Source: an uncultured Gammaproteobacteria bacterium | Lineage (GTDB): Bacteria > Patescibacteriota > Microgenomatia > CAZETR01 > Amesbacteraceae | Reading direction: 5' to 3' | Length of the DNA: 64,000 nucleotides | Assembly (NCBI GenBank): GCA_964356225.1 | Contig: CAYHGA010000001.1 | Span: 104,220-168,219, forward strand | In this document: positions 28,184-61,134 of the stretch, piece by piece | Position numbering within the stretch: the stretch's first letter is position 1 | Layout of the letters: each line of letters starts with the position of its first letter | Made by a program: the position numbers and the translations under genes | Notes under the pieces: model-generated | Told to the model about the DNA's origin: nothing | Seen by the model: only the letters and a program-made list of their open reading frames with translations | The model's database searches: none

Positions 28184-29321
28184 AGGCCATAAGTATAACT
28201 AATAATAAAATGTTTTGGTGAAGAGTGAGCCAGTAGTGATCGGCGGCGCCGGTGATCGCGATCACGGCGGCCGCAGTTATTAGTTCATAGTTCATAGTTC
28301 GTAGCCATTTTTTACTATGAACCAATAACCAATAACCAATAACTGCCGTGGCGGGAAGGCCGAGCTCGGATGCGATGAGAAGATAAATATTATGAACGGG
28401 CTGATATAAATAGTTATTAGTTATTAGTTCATGGTTCATAGTAGCCGGAATAAAGTTGCCTAGACCGACTCCCAGAATGGGATACTTTTGAACTAATACT
28501 AGTGAATTATGAATTAACGAGAAACGACCGGGGAGAGATTCTATAGAACCTGTGATAGAAACTAGAAAATAGATACTGGAAAACAGGAGGAGCAAACCAG
28601 TGACAATTTTTAATTTTAAGTTTTTAATATCGACTTCGTCGCGCTTCGCGAGTAATAAAATCCAAATGCCTAAAATTAAAATTTCCAAAACGATGGCTGT
28701 GCGGGAGAAAGTAAGCGGGATCGTTAAAAAGGCGGCGAGAAGGGCTGGAGTGATCCGGCGATTTAATGAATAAAGTATTAAGCCAGCGACCAACAAGAAG
28801 CCGGCCAGGGCGTTGGGGTGGGGGGATGTAGCATAGGGGCGCATAAGCAAGTGACCAAAAAAGGAAATTTTGGCGATGAGAAGAGTGGAGACGGAGAGAG
28901 GTCGTTCTCCGAGCCAATACCAAAATCCACCTACAGATCTCTGAAGAATAAATTGCCACCAGGCGAGGATGCTTGTCCACAAAGTGGACAGCGCAAGTGC
29001 ATAGTTCATAGTTCGTCGTTCATAGTAGCTGATCAAATATTTAAAGAGCCAGAAGTATTCGAGGACACGGAGCCACTTATAGATAGTTAATAAAGGAAAC
29101 GAAGAGATTAAGAGATTAAGGACGACGAAGATGATTACCGGAAGAGGGACGCGGACGCGGAGACGAGAAGTAAGAAATAATCCAATGATAATTAGGTCGG
29201 TGAGATAAAGAGTGGGGGAGAGATAGTCGACGCGAATGCCGTTAATAAGTGACCAGGACGGCCAAAAATGAAAAGCGATTTGGGAGGGGAGAAGTAGAAA
29301 TAATAATATTAAAAAGATCAC
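28149..29321 (-). CDS. O-antigen ligase/polymerase-like polytopic membrane protein
   Basis: About 10-12 TM helices with a large periplasmic loop and Wzy_C-like organisation. The call is by topology only. Confidence 0.45.
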   Translation of the reverse strand: MIFLILLFLLLPSQIAFHFWPSWSLINGIRVDYLSPTLYLTDLIIIGLFLTSRLRVRVPLPVIIFVVLNLLISSFPLLTIYKWLRVLEYFWLFKYLISYYERRTMNYALALSTLWTSILAWWQFILQRSVGGFWYWLGERPLSVSTLLIAKISFFGHLLMRPYATSPHPNALAGFLLVAGLILYSLNRRITPALLAAFLTIPLTFSRTAIVLEILILGIWILLLAKRDEVDIKNLKLKIVTGLLLLFSSIYFLVSITGSIESLPGRFSLIHNSLVLVQKYPILGVGLGNFIPATMNHELITNNYLYQPVHNIYLLIASELGLPATAVIGYWLLVHSKKWLRTMNYELITAAAVIAITGAADHYWLTLHQNILLLVILMAYAYSYRWGSQR

Positions 29322-29773
29322 TCCTTTGGAGAGATAACTACGGTTCTAAAACGGCCCTCGCCTTGGGACCCGGTGGTAACTTGGGGGTGGTCGGTGAGAT
29401 AGACATGGATAATGCGGCGTTCGTTGGAAGGGAGGGGGGGGAGGGCTTCTGGTTGATGAGTGGTTACTACCCGACCAACAACGGTGTCTGCCATGGCGTG
29501 AAGGGCCTGCTGGCGGCGTTCCCGATAGTCATTGACGTTTATAGAAATACTGGTCCATTCGGAAGCTTGAGAGTGGAGGTGTTGGGATAGGAGCAACTGC
29601 AAAGAGGAGATGGTGTCCCCGTGATAGCCAACAAGAATGGCCGGGTCAGAAGTATTAATAGTTATTTGATAAATTTTGTTTTCGGGGTCAAAAACTACCG
29701 TGGCCTCGTAAGGAGAAGCGTAACCTAATTGGGTGAGAAATTGAGATAATAATTCCCGAATTTTATCTTCCAT
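29318..29773 (-). CDS. Jag/KhpB RNA-binding protein (KH + R3H)
   Basis: Jag_N-like start. The R3H region is ERRIIHVYL. It sits in the conserved position after yidC. Confidence 0.7.
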   Translation of the reverse strand: MEDKIRELLSQFLTQLGYASPYEATVVFDPENKIYQITINTSDPAILVGYHGDTISSLQLLLSQHLHSQASEWTSISINVNDYRERRQQALHAMADTVVGRVVTTHQPEALPPLPSNERRIIHVYLTDHPQVTTGSQGEGRFRTVVISPKE

Positions 29774-30572
29774 GGATTTTTTTTATGAAAGGAGTTAACC
29801 CGCCCCACCCAGAGGCAAAATATTGCTGGACCACAGAAACGGCAGAAAAAATTAACCAGTAAAGAACCAGGCCGAATTGAAATTGATAGCCAAAGAGAAT
29901 AGTCATTAAAGGAAACATATATAACATTTGGGTTTGGGTGGCGGCCATAATATCGTCGGTGTCTTCGGGGGTTTTGGATGCAACCTTAGCCGTTACTTTG
30001 GCTTCCGGCATCATCATTTTGGAACTGGCAAATTGGATGAGGGCGGATGCAAGCACAAAAATCCCAGGGAGAGGAACGGGGAGACCAGGGAGGCGGATAA
30101 GGTCGGGCTTGGTTAGCTCAAGACCATAAAATGATGTGGAAAGATGAAAGTCGGAGGGGAGTTTGTTAATCGAATAAAGAATGGGGTTAAGATGGTCGAC
30201 TAATGATTGGCCGTTGGGTTTAAGGACGGTATTAAAAGCATTGAAAAGGGCGATAAGGACCAAAATCTGAATTATTTGGGGAAGGCAGCCGGCGGCGGGA
30301 TTAAGCCCGTTCTTTTTGTACAATTCGGCTTGGGCGGCCACTAAGCCCTGTTTATTGTCTTTGAATTTTGTTTTAAGTGCAGCCAATTCCGGAGCCAGAT
30401 CCTGCATTTTTTTGCTGGATTTAAGCGAGGGGATAACTAAGGGAGTCATAACCAGGCGCAAACCAATAGTGAGAAGAATAATGGACCAGCCCAGGTCGCC
30501 GGTAAGACGGGCCAATCCGATTAAGGCATTAAGTAGGGGGTGAAACAATAATAAATTCCAAAGATTAGCCAT
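29763..30572 (-). CDS. yidC: membrane protein insertase YidC (short form)
   Basis: MANLWNLLLFHPLLNALI...GWSIILLTIGLRLVMTPL start. 5-TM 60 kDa-IMP core. Confidence 0.85.
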   Translation of the reverse strand: MANLWNLLLFHPLLNALIGLARLTGDLGWSIILLTIGLRLVMTPLVIPSLKSSKKMQDLAPELAALKTKFKDNKQGLVAAQAELYKKNGLNPAAGCLPQIIQILVLIALFNAFNTVLKPNGQSLVDHLNPILYSINKLPSDFHLSTSFYGLELTKPDLIRLPGLPVPLPGIFVLASALIQFASSKMMMPEAKVTAKVASKTPEDTDDIMAATQTQMLYMFPLMTILFGYQFQFGLVLYWLIFSAVSVVQQYFASGWGGLTPFIKKIHGR

Positions 30573-30753
30573 GACTGAATGGGTGACAGTGTAAAATGCG
30601 CCAGCTACCCATCAAAACGCCTCTCAGGATACCATATTTATCTATAGCTTGGTAGGTGTATTCGCTGCAGGTGGGGTGGAAACGGCAAGAAGAGTGCAGG
30701 CTAGTGGGAAAGTTTTGATACCAGCGAATTAAGCGCAGTACTAATTTCTTCAT
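30565..30753 (-). CDS. yidD: membrane protein insertion efficiency factor YidD
   Basis: 62 aa. Carries CRFHPTCSEYT...HCHPF motifs. Confidence 0.8.
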   Translation of the reverse strand: MKKLVLRLIRWYQNFPTSLHSSCRFHPTCSEYTYQAIDKYGILRGVLMGSWRILHCHPFSHG

Positions 30754-31012
30754 GGCTTAATTTTAGCATCGTGCTCTTCGGGAAGAGGATAATGTCGAAA
30801 GAAATTTTCGGGAAACAAGAATAAATTTGGCGGCGGAGCCGGTTACGAATTACGGCGGATTTAGAAAGTTTGGCAGAGGTTACTATAGCGACGCGACCGG
30901 GAACGCGGGGAGTATAGAGAGTTGAGAAATGGGGGAAAAATAAAGACTTACCAAGTTTTTTGGTTTGTAAAAAGTCTAGGCGGGCCAGGCGGAGTGATTT
31001 AGGAAGCATCAA
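30701..31012 (-). CDS. rnpA: ribonuclease P protein component
   Basis: LPKSLRLARLDFLQTKKLGKS plus the RNR motif (VIRNRLRRQI). It precedes yidD. Confidence 0.75.
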   Translation of the reverse strand: MMLPKSLRLARLDFLQTKKLGKSLFFPHFSTLYTPRVPGRVAIVTSAKLSKSAVIRNRLRRQIYSCFPKISFDIILFPKSTMLKLSHEEISTALNSLVSKLSH

Positions 31013-31021
31013 ACGATTTTA

Positions 31022-31930
31022 CTATACTCCATACTTTCTTTGTCTTTTCCTTTCTGTTTCTCTTATTGCGTTCACCCTTCCATAGAACCCTCCTTGAGGG
31101 TCTCTTCCTTCATGTTGGGCCAGGGAGTCAGGTTTGGGAGCCATTGAATGGACGACCCCCATTTGAACCACCTTGTCTATCACCCCAAACCTTTTCTCAA
31201 CTTGGGGAACAATGTTTCCTTCCATTCCTCCACAAAGTACAAGCCAGAAGCCGTCAATGTCTTGGGCGGCTGGTTTATCGCCTCTTTGTTTTAAACGAGC
31301 TGGAAATTCTCTGGTAAAAGCTTTACCTCCGGATGAATCCGAGGGAACGAGCTGGTTAAATATATTTAACGACGGACTAAATCTATGGTCGGGTTTAATT
31401 GTGTTTTGACCTTGCTTCAAGGAACCACCCTCCCTCAAATTGTCGATTGCTGTTACCAAAATGTCGGGAAGCCGGGGGTCGATTTCTTTTCCCTGCCGTT
31501 TTAATTCTCGGGCAGAGAGCATAAGTTTAGCAATAATTAGGGATTGTAATTCCAGTAGTAGTATTTTGCCGTTAGGGGCAGTTTTTTCGGAATTTCCCGT
31601 AAGGACCACTAAAAGTGAGGCCATTTGAACCACCTTGGTCCGGTCACTGTTTGAAGAGGGGGTCTCACCGGGATATCCAACTGGTCCCATCAGAGCCAGA
31701 AACTCCCGCGATTGTTTGTATTTTTGGTCTAAGTTGGAAGAATAATCTGGAGACGGGATTTGTACGGCCCCATTTTCGAGGACAAGTTTTGTAAAGTAAC
31801 GGCTTTCTCCTAGTTTCAGAGTCCTATTTTTGATATTGGGACTTTTTAACTTATCGTCCAAAAAAGATTCTAGCGGAGGTTTTATTGATCCTCCATCAAA
31901 CCCTTGCTCCATTGTCGAGTCTGCGCTCAT
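31022..31930 (-). CDS. hypothetical protein (302 aa, soluble), inserted between rpmH and rnpA
   Basis: Long ORF with no recognisable motif. It interrupts the otherwise universally adjacent rpmH-rnpA pair. Confidence 0.35.
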   Translation of the reverse strand: MSADSTMEQGFDGGSIKPPLESFLDDKLKSPNIKNRTLKLGESRYFTKLVLENGAVQIPSPDYSSNLDQKYKQSREFLALMGPVGYPGETPSSNSDRTKVVQMASLLVVLTGNSEKTAPNGKILLLELQSLIIAKLMLSARELKRQGKEIDPRLPDILVTAIDNLREGGSLKQGQNTIKPDHRFSPSLNIFNQLVPSDSSGGKAFTREFPARLKQRGDKPAAQDIDGFWLVLCGGMEGNIVPQVEKRFGVIDKVVQMGVVHSMAPKPDSLAQHEGRDPQGGFYGRVNAIRETERKRQRKYGV

Positions 31931-31951
31931 GTTTTGTTTATGGTACTAAAA

Positions 31952-32485
31952 CTAGTGGTGTTTAACAAGAGGAATCAATATTTTTTCTGCTTGCCATGCT
32001 TTAACCACCCGAGCGTTAAATTTTAGTGCTCCCGTTTGATCTCCACGACTAAGGGCTTCGTTTCTAGCACGAACGGCTTGTTCTTTTAATTGGTGGGTTT
32101 TCCCTAAAGCGTAAGTCTTATCGTTGGGACAACTTATTAGAGCATAATACGTTCTAAGAAACTCGTGCTTTCTTTGTTTGAGAGAACGTTGTTGTGACAA
32201 CTCCACCGCTGCTGTGGGGTGTAATCTATGAAGATTTGACAAAAGGGTTTCTGTTAATAAATCTGCTAGTGGTAAATTTGTTGTTTTTAAGTTCTCAACT
32301 GTTTGTTGAGCGGTTAAAATAAGTCTAGTTGCTTTTGCACTAGTTAACGTCGGGGCTTCTCGCTTTGCGTCGTGGGCGATCCCCACATCTTGTAGGGCGG
32401 TTGATAGTCTGATTATTTGTTTGTTGATCGGACCAAGGGATTCCTGTGCTTCTGTTTGTGGGGGGGTGTTTTCAGACATATACAA
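31952..32485 (-). CDS. hypothetical alpha-helical protein (177 aa), inserted between rpmH and rnpA
   Basis: ORF ending 3 bp after the rpmH stop. Predicted helical. No motif. Confidence 0.35.
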   Translation of the reverse strand: MYMSENTPPQTEAQESLGPINKQIIRLSTALQDVGIAHDAKREAPTLTSAKATRLILTAQQTVENLKTTNLPLADLLTETLLSNLHRLHPTAAVELSQQRSLKQRKHEFLRTYYALISCPNDKTYALGKTHQLKEQAVRARNEALSRGDQTGALKFNARVVKAWQAEKILIPLVKHH

Positions 32486-32487
32486 AA

Positions 32488-32628
32488 TTAGACTGTTAAC
32501 TTTCGGCGGCCGGCGAGGCGGCGGCGTTTGAGAACGTTGCGGCCGGTGCGGGTGGACATACGGGATCTAAACCCATGTTTGCGAATTCTTTTCAACTTTT
32601 TGGGCTGCCAGGTGCGTTTAGTGGCCAT
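32488..32628 (-). CDS. rpmH: 50S ribosomal protein L34
   Basis: Hand translation of the minus strand gives [46 protein letters not shown], a canonical L34. It is below the 60-aa cutoff and so absent from the ORF track. Confidence 0.85.
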
Positions 32629-32665
32629 GCGTGAAATTATATCACAAAGAGGTACTTGACGAATT

Positions 32666-32674
32666 GTGGATAAG
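32666..32674 (-). promoter_or_regulatory. perfect DnaA box (TTATCCACA) in the rpmH-dnaA spacer
   Basis: The plus strand reads tgtggataa. It lies 20 bp upstream of the dnaA start, suggesting an autoregulated dnaA promoter. Confidence 0.5.
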
Positions 32675-34055: not shown

Positions 34056-34210
34056 CAATTGTATACAACTGGAGACGCTTATGCACTTGAAGTCAGATAT
34101 ACAGAAGTTGTCCACAAACTTATACACAAAACAATCCCCCGGCTGGCAGGTGGCTATTATCAACATATCCACAAGACCTACTACGGTTACTACTAGTTAG
34201 TAAAAGAAAA
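34056..34210. promoter_or_regulatory. candidate oriC (DnaA-box cluster plus AT-rich stretch) between dnaA and dnaN
   Basis: Same-orientation DnaA-box variants: TTGTCCACA (34108-34116), TTATACACA (34120-34128), TTATCAACA (34157-34165) and TATCCACA (34166-34173). An AT-rich run lies just before dnaN. Confidence 0.5.
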
Positions 34211-35317
34211 ATGCATGCAACTGTTTTACAGCAAGATCTAAATAAAGGGCTGGGGATAACCGGACGGGTGGTGGCCTCCCGAGGGCAAATGCCGATTTTG
34301 GCAAACATTCTGATTGAGGCGACTAAAGACGGAATAACGCTGGCGGCGACGAATTTAGAAATTGGTTTGAGGGTGGAGGTGGGAGGAAAAGTAATGGAAC
34401 CGGGGTCGATAACTATTCCGGGGAGGAACTTGGGAGAACTAGTGGGATCTCTTTCAGGGGAGAGTTTAGATTTACAAACCGAGGGGGAAAAATTAAAAAT
34501 TAAGTCTGGAAAGTCAGCGGGGGTGTTGGTGGGGATTGCTGCGAGCGAATTCCCGCCAATGCCGAGAGCGGGACAGGGGGGAAAAGGAGAGGGAGTAAAA
34601 ATTGACAAGAACATAATATTGGAAATAGCGAGCCAGGTGGCGTTTGCGGCGGCCGTGGACGAGAGCAGGCCGGTGCTTACTGGTTGTCGGTTTTCGGTGG
34701 TCGGTGATCGGTTAGTGGTGGTGGCGACGGATGGATTTCGCTTATCGCGAAAAATCCTCAATGCTCAATCCTCAATGCTCAAAGATAATTTGATTTTGCC
34801 GGCGAGGACGATACTGGAGCTGGCGAGAGTAGTAGGGGACGCGGGGGAAGTAACAATGGAGAACGTAAAAGAAAATAACCAGACGATTTTTAGCTGTGAT
34901 GGTGTGCAGTTAATATCAAGGGTGTTGGAAGGAAATTTTCCGGAAGTAGATAAAATAATTCCCCAGAGTTTTAAAACAGAGATTGGAGTGGACAGAGAAG
35001 AGCTACGGTCCTCTCTAAGAGTGGCGGGGATTTTTGCCAGAGAAAACAGCAATATTGTCAAGTTCATCGTTCATGGTTCACGGTTCATAGTAAAAGCTCA
35101 GGCGGGGCAGGTGGGGGAAAACGAGAGTGAGATGGAGATTGAAAAGGAGGGGGAGGACGGGGAGATTGCGTTTAACTACAAATTTGTGCAGGATTTTTTG
35201 GAGAGTGTAACAGAAGAAAGAGTAAAACTAAAAATAAACGACAGTTTATCACCGGGGGTGTGGGCGGGAGAAAAGGACAAGAGTTTGATTCATTTGATAA
35301 TGCCGGTGAGAGTTTAA
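34211..35317 (+). CDS. dnaN: DNA polymerase III beta sliding clamp
   Basis: MHATVLQQDLNKGL...MPILANILIEA start. Three-domain length of 368 aa. Confidence 0.9.
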   Translation: MHATVLQQDLNKGLGITGRVVASRGQMPILANILIEATKDGITLAATNLEIGLRVEVGGKVMEPGSITIPGRNLGELVGSLSGESLDLQTEGEKLKIKSGKSAGVLVGIAASEFPPMPRAGQGGKGEGVKIDKNIILEIASQVAFAAAVDESRPVLTGCRFSVVGDRLVVVATDGFRLSRKILNAQSSMLKDNLILPARTILELARVVGDAGEVTMENVKENNQTIFSCDGVQLISRVLEGNFPEVDKIIPQSFKTEIGVDREELRSSLRVAGIFARENSNIVKFIVHGSRFIVKAQAGQVGENESEMEIEKEGEDGEIAFNYKFVQDFLESVTEERVKLKINDSLSPGVWAGEKDKSLIHLIMPVRV

Positions 35318-35796
35318 TATACATTTGGCGCGGAGGTAAATTCGGTGGGCTCAAATTCATAGTTGATAGGCGCCTCTAAAGGCAGACCGCTAAAGGGTTT
35401 AACCATGACAGACATTTGATACTTTGTGTTGTAGATCCAATCTGACTTGGGGATAACGTGTAAAAGGGAGCGGTCTTTAGCGTCGATTTCGACAGAGATT
35501 TTAGTTTTCGGTTGAATATCGACCATGGCTGTACCGATCCTTAGTTCTTGGTTGAAAACGAAGGTAATAGCTGTATTGCGGAAAGCGACAGGCGATTTAC
35601 CCGGGAGAGGAAAGACGCTAACCAGTTCGAGTTTAATTGGCGCGGGGGTGGGGAAAACATTAACATTCTCAGATGGTTTTTTGGATTTAGATAACAAATA
35701 AACCATTGAAACGACAGAGATTGCCAGCAATACCAAAAACATACGGGCCCCCCTGTTTTTTAATAGATCGGACATTGCTTCTTGTTTTACTGGCAT
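35314..35796 (-). CDS. small membrane-anchored beta-rich protein (first gene of the T4SS-like cluster)
   Basis: N-terminal TM helix (MFLVLLAISVVSMVYLL) and a beta-rich ectodomain. ATGA-type coupling to the upstream giant gene. Confidence 0.35.
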   Translation of the reverse strand: MPVKQEAMSDLLKNRGARMFLVLLAISVVSMVYLLSKSKKPSENVNVFPTPAPIKLELVSVFPLPGKSPVAFRNTAITFVFNQELRIGTAMVDIQPKTKISVEIDAKDRSLLHVIPKSDWIYNTKYQMSVMVKPFSGLPLEAPINYEFEPTEFTSAPNVY

Positions 35797-38045
35797 AAGT
35801 AATTTTCAGGTTTTACAAAAAGGCCACTAACCTGCATTTCTAAGTGCAGATGGGTATTGCCTCCTTGATTATATAATTTTCCAACGGGCTTGCCAGAGTC
35901 GAGTGATTTCGTAAAATCAACTGTTGTTTGATCCATGTGCGTAAACGTTATGACATGTTTTCCAGTCTGGTCCCGATATAAGTAACTGAATCCGGAGCCT
36001 GGATTTGGAAACGACGTAGTGGGGTTCCAGGTGGTTGGGTTGCCATCAACTGACGGCGCGTAAACCCAAGCGTTGTCTCCTGGAAAAAGATCGGCGGCGT
36101 ATCCATAAAAAGGACACTTGGAAGAGGGGTGGGTTTGCTGACATTTGTTTCCGGTATTGCTGTTGGGAGCCTGACAGCCGATTAAAGTTTGCGGCAGGGG
36201 ATATGTGCAATCTTGGTGGGCGACATTGTTCCAATAATAGTTTGATCCGTGGCCGCCAGCGATGTCGTTTTCGTGCGAAGAATCGTATGATTTTTGTTTA
36301 TATACGCCATTCAAAATGGGACAAGAAATATTACGGGGGGCGTCTTGGGGTGGTTGGTTGTTTGTGGAAAACGGATTAGGGGGGACGACGAGGGCGGAGG
36401 AGTTGATGATGAAGAGAATTAGGGCGATGCCGATGGGAATACTTATGATAATGATGATTATGGGGGCGGCGATTTCGGTGGCCACAAGTCCGACCATGGC
36501 GGTGGAAGCGGTGGCAATGGCGTTACCGGTCTTGGTAAGAGCCCCGGCAACTCCGCCGGATCCTTGAATAGCAGCGCCGGCGACAGCCCCCGTAAGTCCG
36601 AGTGCGGAAGTGCCAATAAGACCCAGCCCGCCGATGACTCCACCGACTATTCCCGCCAGTCCCAGGAAAATAGCCGGAAGATATTCTTTGATGAGGATCT
36701 TGGCTTTCGACCAGAGAGTTTTGACGGCTTCGATGGCAAGGGGAATAAGAAGGGAAAGACCTAGTGTTTCCGGAGCCAAAGCGGCTCCGGCGGCGGCTTC
36801 GGCCCCGACAGCGGCAGCTTCGGTGGCAGCGGCGGTGGCGGCTTTGGTTCCTAAGGAAGTGAGAACTTTTTTACCGACTTCGGAGGCGGCGAATTTTTCC
36901 CAGGCGGCAGAGGCCACTTTGTCTTGAATTTTGTTTTTGCCGAAACCGACGAGACAATTGAACCAACCAGATTGATCTGGGGATAGAGGTTGGCCGGGGA
37001 CATGGTCCGATTGAGATGAATAAAACTGGAGCGGGCGGGTGAAATAAACAGTGCGGTAGTTGAGATATTCAATTACTTGATTTGAAAAGTAGATTTGAAC
37101 TCCGGAAACGCGCTGGGAATGCTGCGGGGGAGAGTCTGAGAGCCGGTGAGGTGTGAAAGAGGCAATGGTATTGATAAGGGGGACGAAGTGGGTGGCAAAT
37201 TGGGAAGCGAGGGACAGGGCCTGCGGGGTGGGATAACCGGCCTTGAGAAATTGGTTGTGAAGAGACAGGGTTAGGGGGGGGGTGGTAGGGGAGGGAGCTT
37301 GAATTTGGGAAATGCTGGATGCAGCAGTTTGGGGAATATTGAGAGGTTTACCAATGGCTTCTGAAGCTAGAGTTAGACGCTCAAGGAGTTGTTGGATTTG
37401 GGGGACCGTAACCTGGGGGGTGGCGATTTTGAGAACAGTGACGGCGGCGGCGGCCGGCTGGGGAAGAACTTGAATGGTTTGAAGATAAATATTTTCAATG
37501 ACGGGGTGGGAAACTTCGGGAATAAGGGGAGCTAAAATTTCAGGGAGAACAATGCTGGCAAGTTTTTCGATGGTGCCGACGGGTTCAAGAATAAGGCTGG
37601 GGGCAATATCGGGGATAGATTTTTCCAGCCCGGGAACATTTTGGGAAAGTTTTTTTAGAAGATCCAGGTGTTTTTGATAACTTTCCGCCCCAATTTTTTT
37701 TATGGCTTCGTCTTGACGGGCAAGACGCTCCTGATCTCTTTTTTCTTCTAAAAGCCTGACGTTTTCCTGGAGGTTGTCTATGGCCATGTTACTGGTGGCG
37801 TCGAGGTTGAGGGTACGAATTACATCAATGAGGGAAACAATACGGTCAAGCAGGTCTGGGTTGTTTTTTATTTGGTTGATGATGTTTTCGGCCGCGGCCC
37901 CCTTTTTTTGACGAATGGTGCTTTCGTATGCAGTCCACAGGCTGGTTTCGGTTTGGGCCAGAAACTGATAATCGTGGGGATGGAGACCGACGAGGCGAAG
38001 GGTTTCTTGAAGAACGGCGGCTTGTTTTTGAGCGAGATCGGCCAT
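35787..38045 (-). CDS. large membrane protein with C-terminal M23-like peptidase domain (T4SS-associated cell-wall hydrolase candidate)
   Basis: Helical/coiled-coil N-terminal half. Central Gly/Ala-rich multi-TM block. The C-terminus carries HENDIAGGHG and GNTHLHLEMQ motifs, which are LytM-like HxxxD and HxH. Confidence 0.45.
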   Translation of the reverse strand: MADLAQKQAAVLQETLRLVGLHPHDYQFLAQTETSLWTAYESTIRQKKGAAAENIINQIKNNPDLLDRIVSLIDVIRTLNLDATSNMAIDNLQENVRLLEEKRDQERLARQDEAIKKIGAESYQKHLDLLKKLSQNVPGLEKSIPDIAPSLILEPVGTIEKLASIVLPEILAPLIPEVSHPVIENIYLQTIQVLPQPAAAAVTVLKIATPQVTVPQIQQLLERLTLASEAIGKPLNIPQTAASSISQIQAPSPTTPPLTLSLHNQFLKAGYPTPQALSLASQFATHFVPLINTIASFTPHRLSDSPPQHSQRVSGVQIYFSNQVIEYLNYRTVYFTRPLQFYSSQSDHVPGQPLSPDQSGWFNCLVGFGKNKIQDKVASAAWEKFAASEVGKKVLTSLGTKAATAAATEAAAVGAEAAAGAALAPETLGLSLLIPLAIEAVKTLWSKAKILIKEYLPAIFLGLAGIVGGVIGGLGLIGTSALGLTGAVAGAAIQGSGGVAGALTKTGNAIATASTAMVGLVATEIAAPIIIIIISIPIGIALILFIINSSALVVPPNPFSTNNQPPQDAPRNISCPILNGVYKQKSYDSSHENDIAGGHGSNYYWNNVAHQDCTYPLPQTLIGCQAPNSNTGNKCQQTHPSSKCPFYGYAADLFPGDNAWVYAPSVDGNPTTWNPTTSFPNPGSGFSYLYRDQTGKHVITFTHMDQTTVDFTKSLDSGKPVGKLYNQGGNTHLHLEMQVSGLFVKPENYLCQ

Positions 38046-38048
38046 AGA

Positions 38049-40424
38049 CTAGGGGGTGGTTTCAGGAACTAGACGAACTTTCTCTTCTTTTTGAGCACTG
38101 AGTATTTCTGAAGGCTTGGTGGTAATGAGCTTGTGTTCGTCGGGAGAGGCGACGACGCGGATGGCGACGTGATTATTGCCGGCAAAAAACAGACCTTCGC
38201 CCACCTCGCTACTTAATAGTAAATGCTTCTCCCCCTCGGAAAGATAGAAGACCTGGGCGACTTTGTCGATGGCGGCGGGGGATTGTTTCATGAGAACTTG
38301 GATACTGGAATTGGTGACGATGGCCTTGCCGTAATCCGTGCTCAAGAAATCTTCCACGTCCTGGGTAATAGTGGTCAGCCCCAGGAAATACTTGCGGGCG
38401 CGTTTAGCAATGCCGTATAAAAAGGCGGCGGAGTCGGGGGAGCGCATCAGATACCAGGCTTCATCGACAATTAGCAGTCTCTTTTTTAAATCCCGGCGCA
38501 TTTTGGTCCAAATATAATCCAAAATAATAAAAATGGCGATGGGCTTGAGGGAGTCTTCCAAATCGCGGACGGAAAAAACAGTGAAAGGATTTTTGAGATT
38601 GACGTTGCTGGGCTGGTCGATGATGCCGCGGAAGCTGCCTTTGACGAATTTTTCAATGCGGTCGGCCAGGGCCCCGGCCTGGGGTTCTTCCATACCCACC
38701 AGGGCTTTGTAGAGGTCCTCCATGAGGGGTGGAGGGAGTTTTTGGGTTTGGGGATCTGGGGTGATGCCTTTCATTTTGTAGGTGGCAACCAGGGCCCGGT
38801 CCAAAATAGCTTCTTCGGCGGGAGACAAGACGCCCATAATGACCTTAAACAGGGAATGCAGAGAGAGAATTTTTAAGTTTAGTTCGTTTTCATCGGAAGT
38901 GTCGGTGAGGGCAGAGAGGTCGAAGGGGTTGAGGCGGCAGGGAGAATTGAAAGAAAAGTTGATATATTCGCCGCCGACGGCGTCGGAAAGAGTTTTGTAT
39001 TCGTTTTCAGGGTCGATGATAATAATTTCGGTGCCAAACATGAGGGAGCGGAGGATTTCCAGCTTGACCAGGTAGCTTTTTCCGGCGCCAGCTTTGGCAA
39101 AGACAACGGTGTTGGCGTTTTCTAAACTGAACCTGTCAAAAATTACTAAACTGCCGTTGTGCTCGTTGAGTCCATACAGCACGCCTTCGTTGCTGGTGAG
39201 TTCAGAGGAGGTAAAAGGAAAAGTAGTAGCCAGAGAAGTGGTGTCCATGTTGCGGGTGACCATGAGGTGGTCAATACAGGCAGGGAGAGTGGTTTTGAAA
39301 CCGTCGGCCTGTTGGAGAAGGGCGGGGGCGGTGGTGATAAGCAAAGAACCTAAGGTGCTGGAAACCTGTTTGGTGACCTGATTAAGTTCGCTCTCGGATT
39401 TGGCAGGAATGGTGACATACAACCCAAACTGAAAGAAGCGTTCGGCACCTTTGACCAATTGGTCTTGGAGGGAGAGGGCGTCTTCGAGTTTGGCTTGGGT
39501 GCTGGGGTCGACCACCCGGCCACGCTGCAAGTCGGTGGAGATTTCGGCCTCCATTTCGGCAATTTTCCTGCGCAGATCATCGAGAGTGGATTTGCTTTCT
39601 ACGGGGTAGACGAACATAGAGATATTTAAAGAGTGGTCAAAATTAATGAGGGGAGCCAGCCAGTTGGCGGTGACAAAACGGGGATAGCCGGCCACAAAAA
39701 GGGAGCGGAAATACCAGTCGTCGATTTTGAGGGTGTTGAAATCAACTGTAATTACTTGAGGAGCGATGGAGGAGGCGGCTGTGACTTTGGTTTCAACCTG
39801 GGAGCGGTGATAGGAGCTAAAGAAAAACTGAATAAGTTCGGGGGAAGTAAGCTGGCGGGCGCGGAGGCCGATGCGAGCCAACAATCTGGCAAGATGATCA
39901 CGCTTAGGAGAGAGAGCCAGGGCGGCGCGGGCCAGGATTTCGGCTTGGGGTTTGGGCGGAGTTGGGGACTTTTTATTGATAGAAATCAGGGATTTGAAAT
40001 TAGAGGAGATACCAAGCTCCAGAGAAGAGAAGGGAATGGCCACGTAGAACTTTTTGTCCAGGACGTTGCCCTGGCGGACGACGGTTTTAATAAAGTCGCG
40101 ATATTTGGCAAGCTGGTCATGTAAAAGAGAGTTGGCAGTTTTTCCCAGCTGCAGATCCAGGAGGGAAAGATAATCAGAAATATCCTTTTGTTTGGAGGAA
40201 ACGACGATTTGAATGGAAAAAGTGAGAGAGTTAAGAAGCTGGGCGTAGGCATAGATGGTGGCGTCCTGCTCTTTTTCGGACAATAAGCCGAAGTTAAGGG
40301 CGGAAACTTCTAACACTAAGCAAGCGGAGCCGTCTTTGAGAACGACTAAATCTTGAGCGATATCCTGGACGTCAAGATGGTCTTGGGTTGTGGATTTGAT
40401 AATGTGATTAGTTAGTTGGTTCAT
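38049..40424 (-). CDS. VirB4/TrbE/CagE-family type IV secretion ATPase
   Basis: 791 aa. Walker A VVFAKAGAGKSYLV and Walker B LLIVDEAWYLM. The overall VirB4 architecture has a long N-terminal domain. Confidence 0.8.
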   Translation of the reverse strand: MNQLTNHIIKSTTQDHLDVQDIAQDLVVLKDGSACLVLEVSALNFGLLSEKEQDATIYAYAQLLNSLTFSIQIVVSSKQKDISDYLSLLDLQLGKTANSLLHDQLAKYRDFIKTVVRQGNVLDKKFYVAIPFSSLELGISSNFKSLISINKKSPTPPKPQAEILARAALALSPKRDHLARLLARIGLRARQLTSPELIQFFFSSYHRSQVETKVTAASSIAPQVITVDFNTLKIDDWYFRSLFVAGYPRFVTANWLAPLINFDHSLNISMFVYPVESKSTLDDLRRKIAEMEAEISTDLQRGRVVDPSTQAKLEDALSLQDQLVKGAERFFQFGLYVTIPAKSESELNQVTKQVSSTLGSLLITTAPALLQQADGFKTTLPACIDHLMVTRNMDTTSLATTFPFTSSELTSNEGVLYGLNEHNGSLVIFDRFSLENANTVVFAKAGAGKSYLVKLEILRSLMFGTEIIIIDPENEYKTLSDAVGGEYINFSFNSPCRLNPFDLSALTDTSDENELNLKILSLHSLFKVIMGVLSPAEEAILDRALVATYKMKGITPDPQTQKLPPPLMEDLYKALVGMEEPQAGALADRIEKFVKGSFRGIIDQPSNVNLKNPFTVFSVRDLEDSLKPIAIFIILDYIWTKMRRDLKKRLLIVDEAWYLMRSPDSAAFLYGIAKRARKYFLGLTTITQDVEDFLSTDYGKAIVTNSSIQVLMKQSPAAIDKVAQVFYLSEGEKHLLLSSEVGEGLFFAGNNHVAIRVVASPDEHKLITTKPSEILSAQKEEKVRLVPETTP

Positions 40425-40783
40425 GGTTCATTGTTCATGGTTAACGATTTCTTTAGGGCACTAATCATTTTGGATAGGGATTCTAGTTTAGTGTAATAGA
40501 TGCTTAAGTTTTGAGGGTTAATGTATCCTTGGCTTTTTGCAATTGTTAATATGGCGACACATTCATAACATGAACCACGGGACAGGTCCAAGAAATGACG
40601 AAAGTCGTTGATTTTTCTACTGCTTCCTTCGGCGATGTTTAGAGCAATAGATACAACAGCTCTTCTTAATTGGTCGGTTAGGCCATAGGTTTCTTGTTTG
40701 GGCCATGAATTTGTAATGCTGTAAATCTCTGAAGCAATGCTTAATGCTTCTTGATAGACACGCAATTCTTCAAATTTGAACAT
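40421..40783 (-). CDS. four-helix-bundle protein (23S rRNA IVS-protein family)
   Basis: 120 aa. The sequence FEELRVYQEALSIASEIY...YGLTDQLRRAVVSIALNIAEGSSR...FLDLSRGSCYECVAIL matches the family consensus. An ATGA overlap couples it to virB4. Confidence 0.7.
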   Translation of the reverse strand: MFKFEELRVYQEALSIASEIYSITNSWPKQETYGLTDQLRRAVVSIALNIAEGSSRKINDFRHFLDLSRGSCYECVAILTIAKSQGYINPQNLSIYYTKLESLSKMISALKKSLTMNNEP

Positions 40784-40792
40784 TTCTATGAA

Positions 40793-41623
40793 CTATGAAC
40801 TAACTAACCGTGAACTTTCAAGTTGGGCTTTGATGACTATGGGGGAAATAATTTTATTTTCGGCTTGGAGAGTGAGGGGGGAAAATTGTAGGCCCTCCTT
40901 CTCGGCTATTAGAGTGTAGGTTCCTTGGGGTAGTGGGGTAGCAGTCATAAACTGGCCGAGTTTGTTGGAGCGGAGAGCCCGGACAGGAACACCTGCGGCA
41001 TCGGATAATTCTAAAATTACTCCTTCTAAGTACGATCCGGCGGAATCAAGAACTTGGCCAGTGAGAAGGTTGGGGTAGTCGGGAGAGGGAATTGAGTTAT
41101 TGGTTACTTGGTTACTTGGTTCATGGTTCATAGCGGCCGGAGGTTTGATGACTGGTGTTTGGTATTCAGTATTCAATATTCGGTGTTCGGTTGAGGGTTG
41201 AATGGCCGAGAAGGCCAGGTTGGGGTGGGAGAAGATTTGGGAGAAACGAGCAAAAAGCTGGCCTTCGATTACGTCAAGAGTAGTTTTTTTAGTTATTTGG
41301 TTAGTTGGTTCATGGTTCATGGTAGCCGGGGGTTGGGAAGTTTCGGACCAGTGAAATTCTGTGGGAGAGTAGATGGCTTTGATAAAAGCCATGATCCATT
41401 GGGAAAAAGGGCGGCCGGAGACGGGAACAAAAGCCAACATGATACCCATTAAAACCGACAGGGCCATGACGGGCCATTTAATGAAAAAAGGGAGGGGAAG
41501 GCGGTATAAAACCGCAGCAACGGCAATGCCGCCGGCTAATTGGAAAAATTGCTTGAGGGTCATGTCACCCACGAGGTGAAATTCGTATGAAGAAATATTT
41601 TGTGGTACAGGGTGCTGATCCAT
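40793..41623 (-). CDS. membrane protein with C-terminal carboxypeptidase-regulatory-like beta domain
   Basis: Two or three N-terminal TM helices. Two in-frame ATGAACCATGAACC-type micro-repeat patches (MNHEPTNQ, MNHEPSNQ). The C-terminal Ig-like GQVLDSAGSYLEGVILELSDAAGVPV region. Confidence 0.35.
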   Translation of the reverse strand: MDQHPVPQNISSYEFHLVGDMTLKQFFQLAGGIAVAAVLYRLPLPFFIKWPVMALSVLMGIMLAFVPVSGRPFSQWIMAFIKAIYSPTEFHWSETSQPPATMNHEPTNQITKKTTLDVIEGQLFARFSQIFSHPNLAFSAIQPSTEHRILNTEYQTPVIKPPAAMNHEPSNQVTNNSIPSPDYPNLLTGQVLDSAGSYLEGVILELSDAAGVPVRALRSNKLGQFMTATPLPQGTYTLIAEKEGLQFSPLTLQAENKIISPIVIKAQLESSRLVSS

Positions 41624-60795: not shown

Positions 60796-60799
60796 ATTG

Positions 60800-61134
60800 T
60801 GGAGGTGGCGGGAATTGAACCCGCGTCCGAAAAAGTTCTTCTAAAGCATCTACAAGCATAGTCTCGGAAAAGCGCCGGACCGCTTGGATTAGTTGATCTT
60901 TCTCCGATGTTGGTTAATCCTAACCTATCGGAGGCATCTCGATTTAATTACACCCTAGCCGGATTCTCGAGATAAATCCGGAAAGAATGCTCACTTTAGC
61001 TTAAGCAAAAGCGTACGCGAAGCGAGAAGTGTCGTATTGATTGACACTTAAGTTTCGAACCTGTTTTACGAGCCTGGTTCAAGCTCGGCTTGCAGCTTTT
61101 CAAAGTACATTTCCCGTCGAATCCTGTCACCCCC
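60800..61134 (-). ncRNA. ssrA: tmRNA (ssrA)
   Basis: The minus-strand 5' end GGGGGUGACAGGAUUCGACGGGAAA matches the tmRNA 5' consensus. The 3' end is a T-arm plus acceptor (CGCGGGTTCAATTCCCGCCACCTCCA). A G3·U70 wobble is kept in the acceptor. The internal ORF ...NQYDTSRFAYAFA* is a plausible tag peptide. Confidence 0.75.

Follow-up and report, generated by a model that had tools for sequence, protein, structure and literature searches.

Two genes in the rpmH-rnpA junction of a groundwater CPR lineage: a possible accessory islet and its recent exchange between lineages

Few gene adjacencies in bacteria are as stable as the junction between rpmH (ribosomal protein L34) and rnpA (RNase P protein), which raises the question of how two further genes came to lie within it, and what they might do there, in a 64-kb stretch of DNA from an uncultured member of the Microgenomatia (contig CAYHGA010000001.1, positions 104,220 to 168,219; the whole stretch is hereafter the window) belonging to the candidate phyla radiation (CPR). 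The two open reading frames (ORFs), here called ORF175 and ORF302 after the lengths of their products in amino acids (aa), separate rpmH from rnpA on the same strand. Our preferred reading, to which we assign a probability of roughly 0.55, is that they form a clade-restricted accessory islet in the rpmH operon, consisting of a constant ORF175 and variable partners, and that this islet was recently homogenized between two co-occurring lineages by homologous recombination.

Two genes at a conserved junction

The first-pass annotation of this DNA had held that rpmH normally abuts rnpA, and the wider survey agrees with it. The comparison set comprised 80 loci around relatives of DnaA, one genome per GTDB species, in which L34 and RnpA were located with small hidden Markov models, and the gap was counted from stop to stop in the 66 other dnaA-linked loci having rpmH and rnpA on one strand. 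Across these the distance ranged from -432 to +504 nucleotides (nt), and a gap of 1473 nt was confined to the window and to contigs of its own population; the two-gene insert was missing in 66 of the 66, several CPR genomes and the nearest Amesbacteria among them. The top DnaA match (62% identity) came from a Candidatus Amesbacteria metagenome-assembled genome (locus L007) in which the gene order is that of the window (a DUF4012 protein, RNase H, a Wzy_C membrane protein, jag, yidC, yidD, rnpA, rpmH and dnaA). In this syntenic CPR relative, the kind of genome with which a comparison had been proposed at the outset, rpmH and rnpA lie together at a distance of 12 nt and the insert is absent. Relative to L007, the nearest available outgroup, and to 66 other bacteria, ORF175 and ORF302 are an insertion. 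No discussion of genes between rpmH and rnpA was found in the literature searched, and the clade shows that even this operon can carry accessory cargo.

The ORF map, together with flanking genes confirmed by Pfam, bears out the description of two extra, close-packed genes on the strand of their neighbors. The order on the minus strand is rpmH, ORF175, ORF302, rnpA, yidD, yidC and jag, and the packing is tight throughout, with ORF175 starting 8 nt past the rpmH stop, ORF302 starting 21 nt past ORF175 and rnpA starting 12 nt past the ORF302 stop. While the gene pair itself is real, its coordinates needed adjustment: alignment to four homologs places the start of ORF175 at the ATG at 32479, which makes the protein 175 rather than 177 aa long and the gap after rpmH 8 rather than 3 nt. 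The start of rnpA is most likely the ATG at 31009 (MLPK...), judging from the same start in L004, L006, L007 and L096.

The two ORFs might not be genes at all but have arisen by chance, or as pseudogenes in decay, within a spacer that has expanded; the lack of any family match, the low confidence of the AlphaFold2 (AF2) models and the shortened copies carried by some assemblies of the window's population could be taken to suggest this. Substitution patterns speak against this. The ratio of non-synonymous to synonymous substitution rates (dN/dS) was 0.31, 0.25 and 0.24 for ORF175 against three lineages (dS 0.5-1.0) and 0.19 for ORF302 against L004 (dS 1.3), so that all four divergent pairs tested fell between 0.19 and 0.31, full-length frames are kept in at least five lineages, and start codons are conserved as well. 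The shortened ORFs in some assemblies of the window population occur on contigs where DnaA is also shortened, and for that reason we regard them as assembly indel errors. A missing Shine-Dalgarno motif was dismissed as evidence against coding, as most genes in the window, like these two, are without one. The ORFs thus do not score poorly in coding statistics, and ORF175 and ORF302 are, on this comparative evidence, real protein-coding genes under purifying selection; we consider it extremely improbable that they are anything less.

Variable partners and an exchanged tract

Six lineages were sampled, the window population being lineage W. Lineage B (L002, L003 and L096, all from the Hainich) has the arrangement of W, that is, rpmH, ORF175, ORF302 and rnpA. 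In lineage A (L001), rpmH is followed by an ORF175 homolog and a third protein with CxxC pairs, after which the contig ends, and lineage C (L004, L005) presents the third protein, an ORF302 homolog, rnpA and then a 23S_rRNA_IVP four-helix-bundle gene at the place of yidD; the three-gene architecture of A and C is a composite of L001 and L004, two partial contigs that do not overlap and come from different lineages. In lineage D (L087, L088) the order is rpmH, an ORF175 homolog, an ORF302-like gene on the opposite strand and a divergent gene with an ORF302-like N-terminus. Lineage E (L006) has rpmH directly followed by rnpA, and then an ORF175 homolog, an unrelated reverse gene of 199 aa and yidD. 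Homologs of ORF175 are found within the rpmH operon in all six sampled lineages, in E past rnpA, and ORF175 is the constant member of the islet, with neighboring genes that vary by lineage; the ORF302-like gene of lineage D is inverted and 38% identical to ORF302. The first-pass annotation had reasoned that the same two genes in all close relatives would make the pair ordinary lineage-specific core. This is largely true of ORF175, which recurs in all six lineages, but its partner genes change from one to the next.

Lineages W, A and B are about equally distant from one another by a segment of the core gene dnaA (its 5' 378 nt: W-A 79.7%, W-B 78.3% and A-B 75.1% nt identity). ORF175 gives W-A 79.9% and A-B 79.7%, and W-B 99.1%. 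Because the divergence of A from the other two keeps step with that of the core genome, ORF175 appears to have been vertically resident for a long time, and these values describe a largely vertically inherited, clade-specific resident rather than a recent arrival. The near-identity of W and B covers about 1.57 kb (97-100% in binned alignments), beginning ~40 nt before the end of rpmH and running ~40 nt into the start of rnpA (Table 1). Identity within rpmH is ~71% over the first 100 nt and 95% over the last 41 nt, and outside the tract it is ~71% in the body of rpmH and ~50% in that of rnpA; by its RnpA, lineage B is closer to C (77% aa identity) than to W (60%). The dS between W and B is 0.008-0.019 in the shared parts of the tract and above 1 in core genes. 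The tract is interrupted by a diverged central segment of ORF302 (aa 29-138: dN 0.51, dS 1.65), beyond which the two alleles are again nearly the same (aa 139-302: dN 0.003, dS 0.019). An assembly chimera was rejected as the source of the near-identical tract, since the B allele has changes of its own (four amino-acid changes in ORF175, leaving the W and B proteins 98% identical) and is supported by independent contigs, three in number, that come from two wells (H32 for L002; H51 for L003 and L096). These sequence comparisons show that the ~1.57-kb tract was recently exchanged between W and B, lineages whose dnaA 5' ends are ~22% diverged.

The simplest account of the exchange is that imported DNA recombined homologously with the resident copy, crossing over within the conserved ends of the two flanking genes and leaving the diverged center of ORF302 in place. 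Entry of the DNA could have been by natural transformation or through the type IV secretion system (T4SS) that is encoded 3-9 kb away. As a clean, base-resolved case of recent homologous exchange between CPR lineages ~20-25% diverged in the same aquifer, the locus bears on the amount and the route of gene flow in these reduced, uncultured bacteria.

The secretion cluster lies beside dnaN on the minus strand (35787-41623). In Patescibacteria, virB4 of such systems is commonly found near dnaA, dnaN, rnpA and rpmH, which has been described as a typical arrangement (PMC12102498). The cluster could be the route for the DNA exchange at the islet.

The suggestion that the pair is a mobile or defense insertion holds in a weak sense, in that a ~1.57-kb tract has been exchanged and the gene content varies, but no signal of a defense system, phage, plasmid, integrase or transposase accompanied it. 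Neither ORF175 nor ORF302 matched an integrase, transposase or recombinase in Pfam, NCBIfam or PHROGs, no pair of terminal direct or inverted repeats and no att site brackets 31013-32487, and relatives on mobile DNA were absent from IMG/VR contigs, INPHARED phages and PLSDB plasmids. Known anti-phage or toxin-antitoxin models (PADLOC and Pfam) gave no match at E<=1. The pair might still be a selfish homing cassette, with an unrecognized free-standing homing endonuclease that cuts islet-less or foreign alleles near the rpmH-rnpA junction and is copied in by repair, co-converting short flanks. The insert does lie between two conserved genes, the near-identical tract does reach ~40 nt into both of them, and its presence and position do differ among relatives. 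Against this, no LAGLIDADG, GIY-YIG, HNH, His-Cys or PD-(D/E)xK signature was found by Pfam in any family member, no trace occurred in phages, plasmids or viral contigs, and ORF175 has diverged like a core gene in the lineages that did not exchange it, which implies long vertical residence. Both exchanging lineages already had the islet, moreover, and ordinary homologous recombination suffices. We regard a homing cassette as very unlikely, and homogenization of a resident islet remains our preferred account.

In the searches for further relatives, a word-indexed search of 5.8 billion proteins returned two ORF302 clusters and four ORF175 clusters, to which a profile search added no further clusters. 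When the ORF302 profile was run exhaustively with HMMER against 1.84 billion representatives, five matches came back, including two fragments of the window's own allele (P0007, P0010), a partial allele of lineage B (P0002) and a distant homolog at 38% identity (P0008). The genuinely distinct relatives in this search are P0002 and P0008 only, and P0001 was added by the word-indexed search; P0009 (1037 aa, 12 matched stretches) is a tandem-repeat translation having just a 'PDHRF' motif in common and was discarded as an artefact. All sources of the two families are groundwater-type metagenomes, several Hainich aquifer wells included, and the window's own population recurs in Hainich wells at an identity of at least 99.9%. 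By these database searches, the families are apparently restricted to a narrow clade of groundwater Microgenomatia-like CPR bacteria. As their relatives are confined to a few groundwater contigs, whatever function is assigned to them would be new; nothing yet shows that it is unusual.

Some further features of the related contigs deserve mention. On L087, two ORF302-like genes (3-170 and 282-1130) stand head to head, 111 nt apart, and one of them, on the strand opposite to rpmH, overlaps the ORF175 homolog tail to tail. An inversion switch for these paralogs was considered and is unsupported, the only inverted repeat being an imperfect one of 15 nt. Lineages A and E have a gene for a two-helix membrane protein of 67-71 aa between dnaA and rpmH (L001 4545-4760; L006 662-865), which is not in the window or in lineage B, where the dnaA-rpmH spacer measures 65-115 nt; it is a second presence/absence difference at this locus.

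Table 1. Positions in the window of the islet, its neighbors and other features discussed in the text
Feature	Position	Strand	Remarks
ORF175	31952-32479	-	175 aa; start ATG 32479 set by alignment; listed in ORF map as 177 aa, 31952-32485
ORF302	31022-31930	-	302 aa
Tract recently exchanged between W and B	30965-32530	unstranded	~1.57 kb
ORF302 central segment	31515-31855	-	codons ~26-139; 47-70% identical between W and B (30-nt bins), small indels
rpmH (ribosomal protein L34)	32488-32628	-	upstream flank of islet; Pfam Ribosomal_L34 1.5e-19; TIGR01030 8.4e-19
rnpA (RNase P protein)	30701-31009	-	downstream flank; Pfam Ribonuclease_P 1e-10; listed in ORF map as 30701-31012
yidD	30565-30753	-	Pfam YidD 8.8e-24
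yidC	29763-30572	-	Pfam 60KD_IMP 1.3e-45
jag/khpB	29318-29773	-	Pfam KH_KhpA-B and R3H
dnaA	32694-34055	+	divergent from rpmH operon
dnaN	34211-35317	+	divergent from rpmH operon
752-aa multi-pass membrane protein	35787-38045	-	no Pfam match
VirB4/TraC-like ATPase	38049-40424	-	P-loop_TraG 6e-31
PrgI-family protein	40793-41623	-	
Extended -10-like element	32636-32644	-	TGaTATAAT
DnaA box, perfect	32665-32673		rpmH-dnaA spacer
Four near-DnaA-boxes	34108-34173		cluster in dnaA-dnaN spacer (34056-34210)

Expression, composition and position

An extended -10-like element (TGaTATAAT), found also in L002, stands 7 nt before the ATG of rpmH and is probably a leaderless-type promoter of rpmH and the genes downstream of it. 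A consensus scan of the minus strand from 31000 to 32500 revealed no promoter-like or terminator-like site. Because there are no such internal signals and the -10 element before rpmH is conserved, co-transcription of the islet with rpmH and rnpA is likely; apparently having neither promoter nor terminator of its own, the islet would be read through from the leaderless-type rpmH promoter. A TATAAT-like hexamer stands no more than ~10 nt from the start codon of several genes in the window (e.g., at 32636-32644, 19909 and 17713), a hint that leaderless transcripts are widespread in this organism.

A deviation in composition, which the first reading of the sequence had proposed to look for, is present in part. 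The coding-strand skew at third codon positions (GC3 skew) is -0.06 and -0.12 for the two ORFs, compared with -0.17 to -0.60 for all other minus-strand genes in the window, and the GC content at third codon positions (GC3) of ORF175, 0.32, is the lowest in the window. The inverted P0008 shows the skew of its own strand. Although the insert does have the weakest skew and the lowest GC3, ORF175 homologs of all lineages share the trait, so that the weak skew may be intrinsic to the gene rather than the mark of a recent arrival; composition is supportive only as evidence of an atypical history.

The pair had also been placed at the replication origin. A single perfect DnaA box between rpmH and dnaA, together with four near-boxes between dnaA and dnaN, agrees with this and makes origin proximity of the islet plausible, but the GC skew shows no inversion at dnaA within the 64-kb window, where the plus strand is G-rich throughout (GC skew +0.09 to +0.43 per 2 kb). 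Either the origin lies elsewhere or the skew is not set by replication. Third codon positions in the window track the DNA strand rather than the coding strand. Of the functions that had been proposed on the strength of this position, one at the origin finds nothing to link either gene to replication, and for a ribosome-associated one, as for one with RNase P, operon position is the only evidence.

Among the neighboring genes, the 3' end of rnpA and the start of yidD overlap by 53 nt (30701-30753). The RnpA of the window clears the Pfam threshold and falls under the NCBIfam cut-off for rnpA (33.7 vs. 38.35 bits), and RnpA is strongly divergent in the clade, with 50-60% aa identity between lineages. 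Farther away, the window contains a tmRNA gene (60797-61134; Rfam 161 bits; tag peptide VNQYDTSRFAYAFA) and four tRNA genes; at the Rfam thresholds, the 64-kb window yielded no further structured RNA, be it rRNA, RNase P RNA or another.

Candidate functions and likeness to known systems

Both proteins are basic (isoelectric point, pI, 9.8 for ORF175 and 9.4 for ORF302) and soluble, with no transmembrane segment. The absence of recognizable motifs noted at first pass is confirmed by the searches: neither protein matched Pfam, NCBIfam, PHROGs or PADLOC at E<=1, and a scan of all members of both families still produced no family match. The best matches of a profile search against the PDB, to an importin (E 0.38) and a Rieske subunit (E 2), were judged to be chance. 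Structure prediction, which had likewise been proposed, agrees with the first description of ORF175 as a helical protein insofar as the AF2 model, built from a shallow alignment, is all-helical with six helices, but the mean predicted local distance difference test score (pLDDT) of this model is only 56.8, and that of the ORF302 model, also from a shallow alignment, is 37.7 and makes it not usable. A Foldseek search of the ORF175 model against the PDB returned generic helical bundles only (E >=0.65, TM <=0.34), which we treated as meaningless. No invariant arginine occurs in the ORF175 alignment, which argues against a tyrosine recombinase, and no catalytic motif was recognizable among the invariant residues in the alignment of the ORF302 family. 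No relationship between ORF175 and ORF302 was detected, and kinship with ORF302 was unsupported for two other islet proteins, the third one of L001/L004 and the one of 199 aa encoded in reverse on L006 (hhalign E 0.16 and 0.47, respectively; shuffling z <=2.1).

In ORF302, the N-terminus (aa 1-25) is conserved, the center evolves fast, the C-terminal core is again conserved and contains the motifs RELKxQGK..D..LPD and GFWLVL, and a basic tail that is probably disordered ends the protein. Within the gene, the 17-nt sequence CAAGGTGGTTCAAATGG (coding strand; KVVQM in translation) stands twice as an exact direct repeat, at 31159-31175 and 31621-31637, one copy in the variable center and one in the conserved C-terminal part; the repeat is not kept in homologs and may be the trace of internal gene conversion.

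Our best guess as to function, against which the odds still lean, is that the pair is an accessory interaction or conflict-type module. In such a two-protein module the fast-evolving center of ORF302 would recognize a changing external partner (a host, phage or competitor), and ORF175 would act through the conserved parts of ORF302, as it does not co-vary with the center.

The main alternative, and a rather unlikely one, is a housekeeping role particular to the clade: ORF175, and perhaps ORF302, would assist RNase P, the YidC insertion pathway or the large ribosomal subunit, having been recruited into the operon in the ancestor of the clade and needing co-expression with L34 and RnpA. The constancy of ORF175 homologs in the rpmH operon of all six lineages, even where they lie past rnpA, would be expected of such a helper, as would divergence like that of a core gene under purifying selection, the tight spacing without internal signals and the basic character that both proteins share with L34 and RnpA, although a basic pI is a weak argument. 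A housekeeping role fits poorly, however, with a tiny family whose genes occur neither in the syntenic Amesbacteria locus nor in 66 other bacteria and which is not phylum-wide, or with the fate of ORF302, which is inverted and 38% identical in lineage D and has an unrelated gene in its place in E. A replacement of ~1.5 kb between lineages would also be unusual for a co-adapted component.

Alternatively, the islet may be a conflict system in the strict sense, namely a module of a type not yet described (toxin-antitoxin, immunity or anti-phage) that is kept where recombination is frequent and diversifies by allele shuffling. The two-gene orphan family with variable partners, paralog duplication and an inversion, the fast-evolving central region of ORF302, the sweep of an allele between lineages and the atypical composition could all be read this way. 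Yet there is no PADLOC, Pfam or PHROGs match, no promoter of its own was found, no catalytic motif stands among the invariant residues, and dN/dS is below 1 wherever it is measurable. ORF175 is 98% identical between W and B while the ORF302 center (aa 29-138) has a dN of 0.51, and because ORF175 does not co-vary with this center, as it would in cognate toxin-immunity pairs, a pair of that kind is argued against. We consider a strict conflict system unlikely.

The most far-reaching possibility, which we hold to be a long shot, is that ORF175 and ORF302 are the founding members of an undescribed functional pair of this CPR clade, either an accessory subunit that the lineage invented for RNase P or for the 50S ribosome particle and expresses with L34 and RnpA, or a T4SS-substrate/host-interaction module. 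The latter option is raised by the basic tail of ORF302 and by the VirB4/PrgI cluster 3-9 kb away; if it were true, the central recognition segment of ORF302 would be reshuffled between co-occurring lineages by recombination.

Several points count against the accessory islet as we read it and against the role sketched for the ORF302 center. The central segment is without a non-synonymous excess (dN/dS about 0.3), and its divergence can be explained mechanically, by a patchy recombination tract that passed over the DNA of lowest similarity. The relatives are, without exception, short metagenome contigs of low coverage, and for this reason the architectures of the islet are incomplete. The weak GC3 skew of ORF175 is seen in the homologs of every lineage, and the proposed co-transcription comes from simple consensus scans only. 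A site in an essential operon, without a promoter of its own, is atypical for conflict systems, and neither biochemistry nor structure offers a clue to any function, with pLDDT values as low as those given above and nothing below E 0.6 from Foldseek.

Comparison with known arrangements helps to place the islet. Like the canonical rpmH-rnpA-yidD-yidC-jag operon beside dnaA, the window has all five genes in canonical order and orientation, divergent from dnaA-dnaN, and a DnaA box in the rpmH-dnaA spacer. It differs in that two extra genes have widened the rpmH-rnpA junction to 1473 nt, and in lineage E the ORF175 homolog lies between rnpA and yidD instead.

Diversity-generating retroelements (DGRs) are common in CPR bacteria, and the 23S_rRNA_IVP family includes their Avd proteins. 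As in DGR targets, ORF302 has a localized variable region, and in L004 a 23S_rRNA_IVP gene comes right after rnpA. The variable segment of ORF302 is, however, ~340 nt long, central and has indels, which is unlike adenine-specific mutagenesis; no reverse transcriptase (YxDD motif in its proper context) was found in the window, and no template-repeat copy of the insert was found there either (best blastn E 0.088, 22 nt). With no reverse transcriptase, no template repeat and the indels, a DGR origin of the segment was rejected. The lineage C protein in question (L004 1929-2528; L005 1431-1838) is a 23S_rRNA_IVP family member of more than 200 aa (2.6e-9), and the contigs of this lineage end before any reverse transcriptase or template repeat could show.

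Polymorphic toxin-immunity and toxin-antitoxin pairs resemble the islet in comprising two genes, in having one protein with conserved ends and a divergent segment and, in one islet lineage, in having extra paralogs nearby. In the islet, the divergent segment of ORF302 is central and not C-terminal, and the partner ORF175 does not co-vary with it. Free-standing homing endonuclease genes spread by 'intronless homing', as in T-even phages. The islet is likewise intergenic between conserved genes, and near-identity extending ~40 nt into rpmH and rnpA is what co-conversion would leave, although ordinary homologous recombination gives the same pattern; the differences are the bacterial chromosome setting, ORFs without a nuclease motif, long-term vertical inheritance and an exchange between alleles that both already had the islet.

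We class the insert with the flexible genomic islets, as a small one made up of orphan genes. It is very small for such an islet (1.5 kb), has no border integrase, tRNA gene or repeats, and sits inside an essential operon, apparently on its promoter, with ORF175 behaving as a vertical resident. For W-B its history is discordant with that of its flanks, but for W-A it is concordant (79.9% vs. 79.7%). Its base composition, with the weakest GC3 skew and the lowest GC3 of the window, may point the same way, but the ORF175 homologs of every lineage show this trait. In common with flexible islets, it has conserved core genes on both sides, which lie next to each other in the islet-less L007, and it carries orphan cargo with a gene content that varies among relatives.

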